From: Methanobacteriota archaeon
Lineage (GTDB): Archaea > Thermoplasmatota > Thermoplasmata > SG8-5 > DAIRED01
Assembly: GCA_043799545.1 (NCBI GenBank)
Contig: JAZDNO010000006.1
Location: 3,413 to 67,412 of the forward strand
Reading direction: 5' to 3'
Length of the DNA: 64,000 nucleotides
Shown here: positions 13,090 to 60,701 of the stretch, piece after piece
How the letters are laid out: the number at the start of each line of letters is the position of its first letter
Position numbering within the stretch: position 1 is the first letter of the stretch
The notes under the pieces: generated by a model
Told to the model about the DNA's origin: nothing
Database searches by the model: none
Seen by the model: only the letters and a program-made list of their open reading frames with translations
Made by a program: the position numbers and the translations under genes

Positions 13090-13130
13090 TCGGCAAACAT
13101 TTAATATCAGTTGCCCATTGAGCCCATCGT

Positions 13131-13241
13131 CCCGACTTAGCTCAGCCTGGCTGGAGCGGCTGACTGTAGTAGGATTACCGGTTCGCCGGCATCGCCGCCG
13201 AAATCAGCAGGTCCCCAGTTCAAATCTGGGAGTCGGGACCA
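13131..13241 (+). tRNA. tRNA-Tyr(GTA) with a 33-nt intron (13170..13202) after position 37; CCA encoded
   Basis: Manual fold. Acceptor CCCGACT/AGTCGGG. D-arm GCTC/GAGC. Anticodon stem GCTGA/TCAGC with loop CTGTAG[intron]A. T-arm CCCAG-TTCAAAT-CTGGG. Discriminator A plus CCA. Confidence 0.8.
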
Positions 13242-13311
13242 TATTTTATTTGACAACGAGACTCCCAGAGAGGACTACTTAGGCATCTGAATCCGTCGTG
13301 GAAGTAGACCG

Positions 13312-13330
13312 AATCTGGGAGTCGGGACCA
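13312..13330 (+). repeat. 19-nt direct repeat of the tRNA-Tyr 3' end, AATCTGGGAGTCGGGACCA, 89 nt downstream of the original
   Basis: Exact copy of 13223..13241. An upstream segment GACTCCCAGA is its reverse complement, giving a long hairpin. Confidence 0.8.
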
Positions 13331-13488
13331 TTTTTTCTTATCTGTATCCAAACAAATCCAAGAAAAAAAGGTAGGACTAGCGGTCTCCGGCAATTACTCA
13401 GCAAGGAGCTAGTCCGAACCATCAAACATCGTCAAAGTAATCACAATCCTTCGACTCCCTTTTTATATCCCTCTCCCGATTTCCCACC

Positions 13489-16937: not shown

Positions 16938-17023
16938 GCGGGGATAGCCCAGCCCGGTAAGGCGCAGGATTGCTAATCCTGTGCTCTTTGAGCCCGGGGG
17001 TTCAAATCCCCCTCCCCGCGCCA
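16938..17023 (+). tRNA. tRNA-Ser(GCT) with long variable arm; CCA encoded
   Basis: Acceptor GCGGGGA/TCCCCGC. Anticodon arm CAGGA-TTGCTAA-TCCTG. Variable arm TGCTCTTTGAGC. T-arm GGGGG-TTCAAAT-CCCCC. Discriminator G plus CCA. Confidence 0.85.
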
Positions 17024-17116
17024 TAATTTTTATTTGGGAACGGGATTTGTACCGGAGGTTCACGAGCTACGCGGAGGCGCAGCGAGCAGGACGAGGCACG
17101 AAGTGGCTCGTCCGGG

Positions 17117-17133
17117 AATCCCCCTCCCCGCGC
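17117..17133 (+). repeat. 17-nt direct repeat of the tRNA-Ser 3' end, AATCCCCCTCCCCGCGC, 112 nt downstream of the original
   Basis: Exact copy of 17005..17021. Confidence 0.8.
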
Positions 17134-18295: not shown

Positions 18296-18437
18296 GTTTT
18301 CAGACCTTTATATATATCAGAAGATATTAAAGTTATGCAACGAAAAGTAAATTCACCATGCAGGCGTAGAGATTCACCATTTCCCTTTCGCCCCACCGCC
18401 GCCCGAGCGCCCCCCGCCCAACGGTTATCAGGACATC

Positions 18438-18448
18438 GGGTCCGCCCG
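18438..18448 (-). repeat. partial direct repeat of the tRNA-Pro 3' end (CGGGCGGACCC on the tRNA strand), ~80 nt downstream of the tRNA
   Basis: 11-nt exact copy of the tRNA-Pro acceptor/T-arm 3' segment plus flanking partial matches (TTTAAAC versus ATTTGAAC). Confidence 0.6.
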
Positions 18449-18530
18449 TTTAAACAGGCTGTCCCGACCAAAACGAATTTATGCTGGCTACCCCTTTTAG
18501 GGGTGGCGTAAGCTTTAAATAAAGTAAAAG

Positions 18531-18605
18531 TGGGTCCGCCCGGATTTGAACCGGGGTCTGAGCGTCCCGAACGCCCAAGTATAGACCAAGCTAGCCCACG
18601 GACCC
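18531..18605 (-). tRNA. tRNA-Pro(CGG)
   Basis: Minus-strand fold. Acceptor GGGTCCG/CGGACCC. Anticodon arm GGGCG-TTCGGGA-CGCTC. T-arm CCCGG-TTCAAAT-CCGGG. Discriminator A. The D-arm pairs weakly (GGCT/ATAC). Confidence 0.7.
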
Positions 18606-44784: not shown

Positions 44785-45636
44785 ATGATTGGCGTAGCTA
44801 AATTGCTTGGAATTGAGGAGTTCGTAGAGAATATCAAAGTACACATGGCTACGGAGCCGGGGGATGCCTACAGGCCATTGAAAGAATATGAAGCAGGGAT
44901 AGAATCTTTCAAGAAATGGCAGGACTACCAAGGCAACGATATCTTCAAGAGGAAATATGTAGCTTCGTTCGTCCAATATCGTAAGAACGTCTGGTTGTTT
45001 GTCGGGGTCTGGGAGATTAAGGGTTTCGTTAATAAACCACGCGATAAGGATGCAGGGGATTGGGCTAATCCGGGAGCCAAGATACGTTATAATTCTTCCC
45101 TCACGAGTTACGGGAAGGATTTGGTCGGACGCTTGCTCATAGACTGGGTGCGCACCCAACGAGACCGAAATTCATACCGGAACGGTGAGAATTTTTTCCA
45201 TCAATTAGGTGTGAAATACATCAAAGAGAAGAAGCATGAAACATCCGAATACCCAGGTCCCGATGATGTTCACCTTACGCACTCAGAACTCACGACTATT
45301 GTCGATAAAGAGGTGGAGTCTTGGAAAGTTTCCTTGTCCTATCTAAAAGGAGTCTATTTAATAATGGACAATAAAACGGGCAAAGGTTACGTTGGTAGCG
45401 CTACAGGCGAGGATTATCTCTGGCAGAGATGGTGTCAATATGCAAAAACGGGGCATGGTGGCAACAAGCTACTGGTGCGCCTTTTAAAAAAGGAGGGCGA
45501 TGACTACGCTGACAACTTTACGTTTTCTCTATTACAGGTCTTCAACCCCTCTGTTGATGATAACGTTGTGATTGAGCGTGAAAGTTTCTGGAAGAGTGTT
45601 TTACTCACACGAGATTTCGGGTATAACGACAATTGA
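44785..45636 (+). CDS. GIY-YIG nuclease-domain protein (C-terminal ~100 aa) with ~185-aa N-terminal domain of unknown function; lies in an AT-rich island
   Basis: GIY-YIG elements GVYLIMD ... GYVGSA ... QRW ... GHGGN ... IERESFW ... GYN. GC content is well below that of the flanks. Confidence 0.6.
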   Translation: MIGVAKLLGIEEFVENIKVHMATEPGDAYRPLKEYEAGIESFKKWQDYQGNDIFKRKYVASFVQYRKNVWLFVGVWEIKGFVNKPRDKDAGDWANPGAKIRYNSSLTSYGKDLVGRLLIDWVRTQRDRNSYRNGENFFHQLGVKYIKEKKHETSEYPGPDDVHLTHSELTTIVDKEVESWKVSLSYLKGVYLIMDNKTGKGYVGSATGEDYLWQRWCQYAKTGHGGNKLLVRLLKKEGDDYADNFTFSLLQVFNPSVDDNVVIERESFWKSVLLTRDFGYNDN

Positions 45637-58394: not shown

Positions 58395-60701
58395 TTATTT
58401 CTTAGTGGCTTTTATCCTAGCGCAAACTGGACACCAGGTTCCATTATTTTTAATACTGCTTGGTCTTGCTTCCCAAGTATGTCCTTTATTGCACATCCAT
58501 TTTATCTTAGTATTATTGTTCAGATATTTGTCTGAAACACATCGCCCTCCTCGTTTTTGTGCAATTTCTTTCATTAACTCTATGTTTAACCTTTGGGATG
58601 CTCCTTTCTTCGATTGTGCACATATAGGGCACCATTGCCCCCTTTGAATATGACCTGGTGTATTCTCCCATTCATGACCGAAACCACAGCGCCATTTTAA
58701 CTTTGTTTTAGAATTAACATATCGTTTGGATAGACACATACCTCCGCAATTCTCTGCAATTCGTTGCATATGGTCTATTGTTTTGCCACGGCCAACACAA
58801 AAAGGGCACCAGTGGCCTTGCCTAACTGTTGATGGTCGAGCTAAGAATATATGCCCTTCTTTACATCTCCATTTCAATTTAGTTGATGAATTAAAATATT
58901 TTGGTGATATGCATTTTCCACCTTTCAATATTGCTAATTTCTCCATATCTTCAATCGACGGCCGTTGTGCATCAATTACCTTTTTGCGACTACAAATGTG
59001 ACACCAATGGCCTTTTGCTATTGATGTAGGTACTGCCAACCATTCATGGCCTTCACTACATTTCCATTTCAATTTAGTTGAAGAATTGATATATGCCTGA
59101 GATTGACAAATTCCATTCTTCACCGAAGCCAATTTATTCATATCTTCTATTGTTTTTCCATAGCCAACGCAATAGGGGCACCAATGACCCATGAAAATGC
59201 TTGCCGGGGGGGCCTCCCAAATGTGCCCATCTTTGCATTTCCATTTTAATTTGACATTACTTTTAATATATTTTTCCGAGAGACAATCTCCTCCTTTATT
59301 TTTCGCATATTCTCTCATATCTTCTATTGTTTTATGGCGTCCGACACAATAAGGGCACCAGCTCCGTCGCTTCACGTGAATTGGCATGGCTGACCAAATA
59401 TGGCCCTCTTTACATTTCCAATCTAATGCAGTATGGCTGTTTATATATACTTTTGAAAGGCAGGTCCCACCCCTTTCGCTCGCTATTTGTCTCATTTCAT
59501 TTATCTTGTTTGGCTTATAAATATTGAAAGATTTGTAATTATAAATATCTAAATTGTTAATGGTAAATTTCAAGTCTCTATTTTTGCACTGGTTGATGAT
59601 AAATTCCGCCATTTTATCGAATTCAATATCGTATGGTACTTCTATTAAAGCGATGTTATGTTTCACACATAACTCTCTTTTTACTTGGTCCCTCATCTGC
59701 CTTTCTATTAACGATTCCTTCTGATCAAAAAACTTCTTAGTTTTATAATGTTGCACTCCAGAATATTCAAAAGCTATGCCTAGTTCTTTGCAGTAACCAT
59801 CTAATTCCATTTTATTGCCCGTCTTTGGATTTATCAACCAGGATGGTTTTATCCTTGGAAACTCCTTTTTGAAAAGTCGTTGAAAGATCTCTCGACATAT
59901 TTTCTCGCTCACGCCAGTTTTACATACTGGACACCATTGTCCTTTTTTAATATTACTAACTATATTTACCCACGAGTGCCCCTCGCTACATTGCCATTTT
60001 AAAGGAGTTCGATTACTGGAATATTTGCTGGATAGTAATAGTCCACCTCTTGCTTTGGCAAGGTCTTGAATATCCTTAATGCGTAATCTTTGTCTGTCGG
60101 TATTGCGTTCTATAGCGCAAGTAGGACACCATTGACCACGTTTTACACTATGTGGCGCCATATAAAACGTATGTCCTTTTTTACAACGCCATAATAACTT
60201 TAAAAAGGCATCACCACATTTTTTTGATAGGCAAGTACCACTCCGTTCGGCAGCAATTGTACGAAGATCTATTATATCGGTTCGGGCTTTGCCAGCACAA
60301 CGTGGACACCAAGAACCTTGGTCCTTCACACTATTGACACTGGCACTCCACTCGTGCCCTTTTGAACACTTCCACTTATATCTATTTCCACTGCGTGTAT
60401 AAACTAAAGATAAAAACTCTCCACCTCTGTCTTTAGCTAATTTCTGAATATCCTCAATTTTTAACCTACTTCGATTTGCATTGTTTATGTTACGACATAT
60501 AGGACACCAGTGACCTTGAACTAATGAGCTCGGAACAGCTGACCACTCATGACCACATTTGCATTGCCACTTCAATTTTGAATGCATATCAATATATCTT
60601 TCAGATAAACATTTACCGTCATGATTGGCAGCGTAAGTTCTCATATCCTCAATCGTTTTTTTCTTATTCATAGGCAAAGAACCATATCTGGGACCAATCA
60701 C
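58395..60701 (-). CDS. 768-aa protein with ~11 tandem zinc-ribbon repeats (K-W-x-C-x2-G-H-x-W ... G-x-W-C-P-x-C) flanking an embedded DUF559/Vsr-like PD-(D/E)xK nuclease domain; AT-rich island
   Basis: Repeats such as KLKWKCSEGHEWLAVPTSIAKGHWCHIC. Central domain ELDGYCKELGIAFEYSGVQHY matches the VDF-x-IE-DG-QH core of DUF559/Vsr-like endonucleases. GC content far below the flanks. Confidence 0.65.
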   Translation of the reverse strand: MIGPRYGSLPMNKKKTIEDMRTYAANHDGKCLSERYIDMHSKLKWQCKCGHEWSAVPSSLVQGHWCPICRNINNANRSRLKIEDIQKLAKDRGGEFLSLVYTRSGNRYKWKCSKGHEWSASVNSVKDQGSWCPRCAGKARTDIIDLRTIAAERSGTCLSKKCGDAFLKLLWRCKKGHTFYMAPHSVKRGQWCPTCAIERNTDRQRLRIKDIQDLAKARGGLLLSSKYSSNRTPLKWQCSEGHSWVNIVSNIKKGQWCPVCKTGVSEKICREIFQRLFKKEFPRIKPSWLINPKTGNKMELDGYCKELGIAFEYSGVQHYKTKKFFDQKESLIERQMRDQVKRELCVKHNIALIEVPYDIEFDKMAEFIINQCKNRDLKFTINNLDIYNYKSFNIYKPNKINEMRQIASERGGTCLSKVYINSHTALDWKCKEGHIWSAMPIHVKRRSWCPYCVGRHKTIEDMREYAKNKGGDCLSEKYIKSNVKLKWKCKDGHIWEAPPASIFMGHWCPYCVGYGKTIEDMNKLASVKNGICQSQAYINSSTKLKWKCSEGHEWLAVPTSIAKGHWCHICSRKKVIDAQRPSIEDMEKLAILKGGKCISPKYFNSSTKLKWRCKEGHIFLARPSTVRQGHWCPFCVGRGKTIDHMQRIAENCGGMCLSKRYVNSKTKLKWRCGFGHEWENTPGHIQRGQWCPICAQSKKGASQRLNIELMKEIAQKRGGRCVSDKYLNNNTKIKWMCNKGHTWEARPSSIKNNGTWCPVCARIKATKK

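Follow-up and report, generated by a model that had tools for sequence, protein, structure and literature searches.

Background

Archaeal tyrosine integrases use the 3' parts of tRNA genes as attachment (att) sites, cleave at the borders of tRNA loops, and integrate in tandem (PMC8371274). Here we describe miniature modules at the tRNA genes of a 64,000-nt stretch of DNA from a Thermoplasmatota archaeon of the SG8-5 lineage (GenBank assembly GCA_043799545.1, contig JAZDNO010000006.1, positions 3,413 to 67,412 of the forward strand), hereafter called the window. At tRNA-Tyr, a 19-nt repeat of the 3' end of the gene is the attR-like distal boundary (S2) of an 89-bp non-coding unit, of which the tRNA 3' end itself (S1) is the attL-like proximal boundary. 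This unit is one of a set of lineage-specific miniature modules present at all three tRNA genes of the window, and their origin as duplications of tRNA att sites is well supported. As in tyrosine-integrase elements, the repeat is a 3' part of the tRNA beginning in a loop, the tRNA gene is restored, and integration is in tandem. Unlike those elements, the modules have an insert of only 70 to 110 nt without any gene or integrase, carry an inverted copy of the att core within a conserved hairpin, and show long evolutionary retention and co-variation with the tRNA. Of the features that mark integrative elements, flanking tRNA 3'-end repeats, a precise empty site, and an att core shared with integrase-bearing elements were found; an integrase gene was not, in what was a weak test.

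Duplications of tRNA 3' ends are usually read as the scars of dead proviruses or plasmids, but here the duplication is part of a compact structured module of 70 to 110 nt. Many species retain this module at the same tRNAs, and when the tRNA changes, the direct and the inverted copy are both rewritten. Several described systems share parts of this picture. cis-Mobilizable elements (CIMEs), described in streptococci, are att-flanked, integrase-less derivatives of integrative elements. Like the modules, they are bounded by attL and attR, contain no recombination gene, and are presumed to be mobilized or accreted in cis or in trans; however, CIMEs are kilobase-sized and bacterial, whereas the window modules are shorter than 110 nt and dominated by hairpins. 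Integrative and mobilizable elements in general have been reviewed (PMC5704250).

Haloarchaeal genomes contain 80- to 110-bp non-coding small mobile repeats (SMRs) as well as miniature inverted-repeat and palindrome-associated transposable elements (MITEs/PATEs), which have inverted repeats and whose mobilization is unexplained (PMC3119063). The modules resemble SMRs and MITEs in size, in their prominent inverted repeats, and in a strong target preference. SMRs, however, cause no target duplication, target IS605-type palindromes, and have copies more than 95% identical to one another, whereas the modules have tRNA-specific arms and an 11- to 19-nt duplication. Unlike MITEs, the insert lacks inverted repeats at its tips (TATTTTATTT... 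and ...GTAGACCG), and the duplication varies in length from 11 to 19 nt, reaching 23 nt at a further locus (L021).

Integron attC sites and the attP(+) site of CTX phage recombine as folded hairpins. The modules are attC-like in being imperfect palindromes of 60 to 140 nt with a variable center, in conserving structure rather than sequence, and in having a stem that rebuilds the duplex of the target. In addition, the intact unit at Tyr and Ser lies beside the platform (the tRNA) and the degenerate unit distally, with the opposite order in one relative (L210), and toxin-antitoxin cassettes occur in arrays. In contrast to attC, there is no attI and no shared GTTRRRY-type core, the core being different at each tRNA, and nothing points to single-strand recombination. 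No common R''/R' core (RYYYAAC/GTTRRRY) was found and no IntI was seen, though no IntI-specific search was made. Integrons with attC sites are known from archaea (PMC9668308).

Casposons also target the tRNA 3' region, duplicate their target, insert in tandem, and leave solo remnants (PMC4779613). They differ from the modules in having a fixed target duplication of 14 to 15 bp, terminal inverted repeats at their tips, and genes for Cas1 and PolB. The variable repeat length and the lack of terminal inverted repeats do not match a casposon remnant; Cas1 was not searched for. Finally, about half of the tRNA genes of Methanopyrus kandleri are followed, some 10 bp downstream, by a palindrome that was suggested to be a maturation signal (PMC5217627). 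Like the modules, it is a lineage-specific hairpin just downstream of many archaeal tRNA genes, but it is one generic short sequence rather than a copy of each tRNA's own 3' end, and it is not accompanied by a direct repeat. None of the systems compared here unites a length below 110 nt, a tRNA-specific inverted and direct copy, and co-variation with the tRNA.

Architecture of the tRNA-Tyr locus

The tRNA-Tyr locus is made up of the following parts, which include a second, degenerate unit (unit B) distal to the intact one (unit A).

13131..13241, + strand: tRNA-Tyr(GTA), with a 33-nt intron at 37/38 and encoded CCA (ARAGORN with intron search, sequence)
13242..13259, + strand: T-rich trailer (TATTTTATTT) and linker, brought by the inserted unit (sequence)
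13260..13269, + strand: inverted arm A, GACTCCCAGA (repeat search)
13272..13310, + strand: inner hairpin of unit A, GGACTACTT ... AAGTAGACC, with a hypervariable loop (minimum free energy fold)
13312..13330, + strand: direct copy S2 of the tRNA 3' end, T-loop AAT through CCA, attR-like (repeat search)
13331..13372, + strand: ancestral trailer TTTTTTCTT and its inverted partner AAGAAAAAAAGGT (repeat search, alignment with the relative L127)
13368..13427, + strand: unit B, consisting of hairpin X (GGACTAGC ... GCTAGTCC) and ending in AGTCCGAACCA (pattern match, covariance model)

A first-pass annotation, made from the sequence without database searches, had called an intron-containing tRNA-Tyr here, and ARAGORN agrees when its intron search is used; default ARAGORN and a whole-window Rfam scan both missed the gene. 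The exact 19-nt repeat that it had reported was recovered at the same place. S1 comprises the last 19 nt of the gene (13223-13241, AATCTGGGAGTCGGGACCA), from the last three T-loop bases through CCA, and is identical to 13312-13330, with the starts 89 nt apart and a gap of 70 nt. The direct repeat lengthens to 28 nt at 93% identity when the T-rich trailer is included. The reverse complement noticed in the spacer is arm A, which is 100% complementary to both copies (13225-13234 and 13314-13323) and forms a hairpin with S2. This arm is reverse-complementary to the last T-loop base, the 3' strand of the T stem, and the first 4 nt of the 3' strand of the acceptor. The T-rich trailer is likely the oligo-T terminator of tRNA-Tyr, and the inner hairpin of unit A is a diverged member of the hairpin X family represented in unit B.

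Unit B is an older module of the same kind as unit A. Its pattern match has an expectation of 0 by chance, it scores 70 bits with the covariance model (R1), and its hairpin X shows compensatory G-C to A-T changes between species. The sequence at its end, AGTCCGAACCA, is a degenerate copy of AGTCGGGACCA. The ancestral trailer region (13331..13372) is 87-95% identical between species. In addition, ATCGT in the 5' leader of tRNA-Tyr is almost a complement of ACCAT at the 3' end (13126-13137 versus 13231-13242; repeat search), and the acceptor helix of the precursor tRNA could reach 12 bp through this pairing.

Modules at tRNA-Ser and tRNA-Pro

The first-pass annotation had also reported the same arrangement at both other tRNAs of the window, and this holds: tRNA-Ser has an exact 17-nt copy and tRNA-Pro an exact 11-nt copy of its 3' end, each with an inverted arm.

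16938..17023, + strand: tRNA-Ser(GCT), encoded CCA, S1 at 17005-17021 (ARAGORN and Rfam, 58.5 bits)
17024..17116, + strand: Ser spacer with T-rich trailer, inverted arm, small hairpin, and hairpins A and B (repeat search, RNAalifold)
17036-17053, + strand: Ser inverted arm GGGAACGGGATTTGTACC, an 18-nt, 83% inverted copy
~17066-17083, + strand: Ser spacer hairpin A
17089-17113, + strand: Ser spacer hairpin B (GGACGAG...CTCGTCC)
17117..17133, + strand: Ser direct copy S2, AATCCCCCTCCCCGCGC, exact over 17 nt (repeat search)
18530..18605, - strand: tRNA-Pro(CGG), CCA not encoded, S1 at 18532-18542 (ARAGORN; Rfam, 43.9 bits in a local search)
18449..18529, - strand: Pro spacer with T-rich trailer, hairpin, inverted arm, and loop TTTAAA (sequence, repeat search, fold)
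~18491-18505, - strand: small hairpin CCCCT-aaa-AGGGG of the Pro spacer
18455-18467, - strand: Pro inverted arm TCGGGACAGCCTG
18436..18448, - strand: Pro direct copy S2, CGGGCGGACCC, exact over 11 nt at 18438-18448, with the hairpin arm reaching 18436

The S2 copy of Ser sits 23 nt past the stop codon of a convergent gene for a DUF373 protein, and that of Pro forms the 3' arm of a 13-bp hairpin across 18436-18467. In general, the modules follow the order S1, T-rich trailer, inverted arm A, one to three hairpins with free-running loops, and an S2 that starts in the T loop. In the RNAalifold structures, A and S2 form an outer stem around the inner hairpins. Each module supplies a T-rich run directly after S1, as expected of an element that restores both the tRNA 3' end and its terminator.

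By chance, a 19-mer or 17-mer would recur exactly within 300 nt about 1e-9 to 1e-8 times, and the upstream flanks of all three window tRNAs, used as controls, contain no match of at least 8 nt. The same arrangement is present in independent assemblies from different samples (L116-L119; L093 and L121, loci of relatives described below), and is thus not an assembly artefact.

The helices rebuilt by the module arms bear on whether the hairpins serve the cell. The elements could be structured sequences of benefit to the host, with a part in processing the tRNA 3' end, in termination, or in insulation, or mimicking the coaxial acceptor/T-stem helix for tRNA-handling enzymes; the hairpin would then be selected for use by the cell, and its match to the tRNA would be functional. 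We consider this somewhat unlikely, though it is the strongest alternative to the recombination model favored below. The Pro arms rebuild the full acceptor stem of 7 bp and 3 bp of the T stem, without CCA, where a complete minihelix would have 7 + 5 bp and end in the discriminator and CCA; the M. kandleri palindrome offers a precedent. However, the extent of the inverted arm varies, with 4 + 5 bp of acceptor and T stem plus ACCA at Tyr (4 of 7 acceptor pairs) and 4 + 3 bp plus a complement of the T loop at Ser, which is a poor fit to one RNA-recognition geometry. The T-rich run, an archaeal terminator signal, separates every tRNA from its hairpin, suggesting that the two are co-transcribed inefficiently. 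Folding energies of the sense and antisense strands are alike, so that no G-U asymmetry points to RNA. Searches against Rfam 15 matched the tRNAs only, with nothing at E <1 in 13242-13430 or in the Ser and Pro modules; that tRNA-Pro seemed absent at the gathering threshold was due to filtering.

Conservation among relatives

The window genes are archaeal, including aIF5B, pyruvoyl arginine decarboxylase, and fumarase, with a G+C content of about 58%. The DUF373 protein encoded between the Ser and Pro modules has an identical entry at NCBI, MFH0815613.1, from a metagenome-assembled genome labeled "Methanobacteriota archaeon", and its farther homologues are annotated as Thermoplasmatota. Homologues of this protein were used to fetch syntenic loci of relatives, whose DUF373 identities to the window are as follows.

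L116-L120: 91%
L121, L122 (one organism with L093): 88%
L123: 78%
L125, L126: 75%
L127: 68%
L210: 63%
L211, L212: 49%

The orthologous tRNAs carry the module in at least seven related uncultured archaea, and a T-rich trailer follows every clade tRNA. In a survey of 74 distinct tRNA loci, a sense copy of at least 9 nt lies 70-115 nt downstream in 15 of the 16 clade loci, a count made up of orthologues of the three tRNAs plus tRNA-Arg(TCG) of L127, the sole clade tRNA sampled without a module. The deeper relatives L210 and L211/L212, fetched after this count, also carry modules. S2 is 19 nt long (L116, L121) or 14 nt long (L210) at Tyr, 15-19 nt at Ser (L121, L123, L127, L210, L211; degenerate in L116), and 12-14 nt at Pro (L122, L123, L125, L127). 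Outside this clade, a copy of at least 9 nt within 250 nt is missing from all 24 tRNA-Tyr loci of a Methanomassiliicoccales-like lineage whose tRNA-Tyr ends in the same sequence, and among the bacterial tRNAs in the fetched loci a downstream copy is essentially never seen. The tRNA-Arg(TCG) gene of L127 (2398-2506 in locus coordinates) has a 36-nt intron and is located in a rearranged stretch close to a gene for an IS240-type DDE transposase.

The structures of the modules are conserved together with their positions. For the Pro module (RNAalifold, four species), 93% of the cells are paired and five pairs have changed on both sides, a result reached by 3 of 500 shuffles; the loop motif CAGTTGGT is conserved as well. 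For the Ser module (five species), there are 27 pairs with 93% of the cells paired and six pairs with compensatory changes. None of 500 shuffles matches this covariation score, and slid controls are only 31-53% paired. The Tyr S2 is identical at 19 of 19 positions in three species (window, L116, L121). The inner loop of the Tyr module is only 33-59% identical between species while the stem is kept, and loops neighboring S2 as a whole are 30-59% identical; unconstrained intergenic DNA further downstream is 54-69% identical.

Both copies follow the changes of the tRNA. All seven substitutions of tRNA 3' ends among the relatives are mirrored in S2 (two in L127 Pro, two in L210 Tyr, and one each in L127 Tyr, L210 Ser, and L211 Ser), and all five in positions covered by arm A are mirrored there. 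For example, the acceptor of L127 Pro reads GGGCTCG/CGAGCCC, with GTGGGCTCGCCC as A and ATCCGGGCGAGC as S2, and L210 Tyr has CCGGG and AGACGGG, with GTCTCCCGGAT as A and TCCGGGAGACGGGA as S2. The substituted T stem CCCAC of L210 Ser is mirrored, L211 Ser has TCCTCGC with GAGGAGGGGGAT as A, and an A-to-G change in the T loop of L116 tRNA-Ser has its match in A, GGGATTCG.

These data bear on two of the alternatives. One is that the modules are passive scars of kilobase-sized integrative elements that lost their interior, leaving attL, a remnant, and attR to decay neutrally. Conserved stems with compensatory changes, retention to relatives of 49% DUF373 protein identity, and tracking of the tRNA by both copies do not fit a passive scar, and independent deletions would not yield one architecture of 70-110 nt at three tRNAs in eight species. 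Degenerate distal units do exist, as this explanation would have it (unit B of the window and the second units in L123 and L211), but the proximal copies are perfect. The passive-scar explanation, which we regard as very unlikely, is already largely refuted by the conservation and covariation data. The other alternative, an element of benefit to the host, draws support from the same observations: modules at 15 of 16 sampled clade tRNA loci with retention to the most distant relatives, compensatory stem changes at Pro and Ser, a conserved Pro loop, and arms that both track the tRNA. Moreover, direct repeats of 11-19 nt at a distance of only about 90 nt tend to be deleted, but these have persisted.

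Possible recombination at the tRNA-Tyr site

A scan of metagenomes with the Tyr 19-mer returned 35 loci. In several contigs from termite guts and sediments, the 19-mer occurs two or three times downstream of tRNA-Tyr, 1.2-8.3 kb apart. At L109 it bounds an 8.2-kb insert in which a gene for a 342-aa integrase (Phage_integrase, PF00589, E 2e-17) ends 33 nt before the distal copy, and at L091 a homologous integrase lies 126 nt from its tRNA-Tyr. Integrase-less cassettes of 1.2-2.1 kb stand between 19-mers at tRNA-Tyr in L103, L104, and L112; their genes encode nucleotidyltransferase (MNT)/HepT toxin-antitoxin pairs and a DUF3800 protein, and these cassettes fit the CIME type well. In the integrase-borne and cassette repeats, the identity begins in the T loop (AATC; up to three bases earlier in L112), as it does in the window. 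The cassette arrays of the termite-gut archaea (L103 105-2252, L104 6272-9006, and L112 98-1846) have an integron-like layout. The passive-scar explanation would start from just such kilobase-scale elements, integrase-less cassettes, and partial extra copies, which other archaea carry at the same 19-mer.

An empty site was found in one relative. The sequence that follows tRNA-Tyr of L127 aligns with the window from 13331 onwards (81% over 104 nt, pairwise) and not from 13242 onwards; the 89-bp Tyr unit is therefore an insertion or a deletion bounded exactly by the repeats. Tandem units are present at Ser in L123 and L211, the second unit being degenerate in both, and at window Tyr, where unit A is followed by the degenerate unit B. 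At L210 Tyr (1889-2070), a degenerate unit with the ancestral GTCGGGACC adjoins the tRNA and a perfect A-X-S2 unit lies distally. This swapped order contradicts a simple rule by which the newest unit stands next to the tRNA. The tandem and degenerate extra units, the precise empty site, and the swaps of unit order resemble the dynamics of mobile DNA, which speaks against an element maintained for the host.

Hairpin X links different tRNA sites. The copy in unit B, the only one in the window, has near-identical counterparts in L125, L126, and L123, where they lie downstream of the Pro module. A covariance model of X searched over 256 kb gave significant matches only downstream of tRNA-Tyr or tRNA-Pro, a distribution indicative of movement between tRNA sites. 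The model also recognizes the inner hairpin of unit A in L121/L093 (29 bits, E 7e-6). The inner hairpin is thus shared as a module, and each tRNA has arms of its own.

The repeats could also have arisen without a recombinase, by fold-back or template-switch errors of replication at the stable hairpin formed by T arm and acceptor in highly transcribed tRNA genes, followed by slippage and gene conversion of the palindrome, which would expand the copies and keep them alike. The sense-antisense-sense order is the classical signature of a template switch, and the inverted arm of unit B includes a complement of the trailer (AAGAAAAAAAGGT versus ACCATTTTTTCTT). Slippage would account for the tandem units and for a deletion with the repeats as its exact ends, and repeat-mediated deletion is documented in archaea (PMC3119063). 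This explanation leaves out the near-identical hairpin X at two tRNA loci in different species, the inner hairpins with conserved stems that do not derive from the tRNA, and the left boundary shared with integrase-borne elements, and we regard it as improbable. Template switching and passive scars each account for parts of the picture only.

Possible origin and function of the modules

We tentatively favor the explanation that the modules are miniature, gene-less, att-flanked units that were made by integrase-type recombination in the T loop and are maintained rather than decaying; this is quite possible, though short of probable. In this model, the duplication would be made by conservative recombination of the tyrosine-integrase type with a crossover in the T loop, the mode of integration used by the tyrosine-integrase elements at the same 19-mer in other archaea being proposed for the modules likewise. 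Because the modules are gene-less, their recombinase would have to act in trans. S1 and S2 would exchange, through the recombinase or through short-patch gene conversion, and S2 would periodically become the working 3' end of the tRNA, so that it stays under selection at the level of the tRNA. The hairpin of A and S2 may reproduce the duplex of the chromosomal target site and be kept by selection on the module itself. We infer all three of these points, namely that a recombinase made the mini-modules, that they still recombine, and that the hairpin has this role.

The first-pass annotation had offered att-site footprints, left by integration followed by loss, as one of its options, and this interpretation is partly supported. 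The att origin of the repeat stands, given the shared 19-mer that bounds the integrase element at L109 and the empty site at L127. A literal scar of integration and subsequent loss is not supported by the structured and conserved spacers, the compensatory changes, and the copies that track the tRNA. Its other option, a systematic structure for 3' processing or termination, falls under the host-benefit alternative and is weakened by the T-rich run ahead of each hairpin and by the equal folding of the two strands. Inserted elements at tRNA-Tyr, which the annotation had proposed to look for, do occur in other archaea, both with and without an integrase. The two observations that it named as speaking against its reading, absence of the pattern at other tRNAs and absence of integrase elements, were not made: the pattern recurs and such elements exist.

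Several points weigh against a recombinase-made, maintained unit. The integrase element at L109 and the kilobase-scale cassettes at the same 19-mer have no inverted arm A, so this att site does not in general need such an arm. Neither the 64-kb window nor the clade loci yielded an integrase, but the test was weak, relying on one tblastn query, about 150 kb of clade DNA, and few open reading frames; the query, the L109 integrase, matched only L109 and L091. The searches turned up no full-length parent element that ends in the same A-hairpin-S. Viral contigs gave 0 matches to the Tyr and Ser 3' ends, and the 51 and 30 matches to two conserved spacer motifs, none of them with a flanking module, are chance 15-mers. 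An 89-bp double-stranded circle is at the lower limit for excision by a tyrosine recombinase, as known from the spacing of Cre/lox sites. Long-term retention at orthologous sites with structural covariation fits a host-beneficial element equally. Finally, the clade sampling covers only three independent tRNA loci plus one negative, tRNA-Arg of L127.

A bolder version of the recombination model would make the modules active substrates that recombine as folded hairpins, in which the A:S2 stem rebuilds the T-stem/acceptor duplex from a single strand. The tRNA genes would then be platforms, comparable to attI or dif, for a single-strand system like those of integrons or CTX phage, with arms "programmed" for each tRNA and hairpin X acting as the handle for the recombinase. 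In a related reading, the hairpins would be transcribed mimics of the acceptor arm that act on enzymes handling or targeting tRNAs. Taken jointly, these ideas strike us as rather doubtful.

If the modules are miniature recombinase substrates, they would be, to our knowledge, among the smallest integrative units described. They would provide a route for the repeated exchange of tRNA 3' ends, with a bearing on how tRNA genes stay intact as prime targets of integration and on the formation of att-flanked cassette arrays in archaea, such as those of toxin-antitoxin cassettes. If they are RNA or processing elements, they would form a class of archaeal cis-element that is new and tRNA-specific. In both cases, finding a tRNA 3' end repeated downstream does not alone imply a lost provirus, which is of use in annotation.

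Related arrays and other observations

A tandem array of hairpins X and Y with a period of about 87 nt is present downstream of the Pro module at L125 (5413-5620) and also at L126, and in degenerate form at L123 (2710-2900). In the L125 array, X is GGACTAGC..GCTAGTCC and Y is CCACAGCGAGAG, a T-rich loop, and TCTCGCTGTGG, with compensatory changes separating the stems of L123 from those of L125. The Y arm is shaped like a tRNA 3' end but matches no tRNA seen. That Y is the 3' end of another tRNA was considered and rejected: no such tRNA is present in any locus or in the window, and the implied C1-G72 pair is Tyr-like. TAGTCCGAA was considered as a genome-wide dispersed repeat, but its 8 occurrences in the window are not above the 9.9 expected by chance.

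Comparable arrangements occur at other tRNAs of more distant archaea. In three Hydrothermarchaeota loci (L024 7271-7375, L026 11155-11320, and L035 11091-11200), tRNA-Lys is followed by a conserved two-hairpin spacer and then by a copy of its 3' end, exact over 16, 10, and 10 nt, respectively. The second hairpin of this spacer shows a compensatory G-C to A-U change, and the L026 spacer has an extra insert of about 60 nt with an inverted copy. The adjoining tRNA-Asp is without such a module. A box C/D identity of the spacer was dropped on inspection by eye, as the motifs are not kept in L026 or L035. At L021 (13804-13965), a Thermoplasmatota tRNA-Arg(CCG) has an exact 23-nt copy of its 3' end 136 nt on, with a perfect 10-bp hairpin and rearranged inverted T-arm fragments in the spacer; its orthologue in L044 has nothing comparable.

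Two regions of the window stand out by their low G+C content. A patch at 44785-45636 (+ strand; G+C 0.49) encodes a 283-aa protein with a weak match to GIY-YIG nucleases (E 5e-4, below the Pfam cut-off). An island at 58395-60701 (- strand; G+C 0.42), probably acquired horizontally, encodes a 768-aa protein with about ten treble-clef zinc-finger repeats (DUF4379, E 2e-52) and a CapR homology domain at its C terminus.

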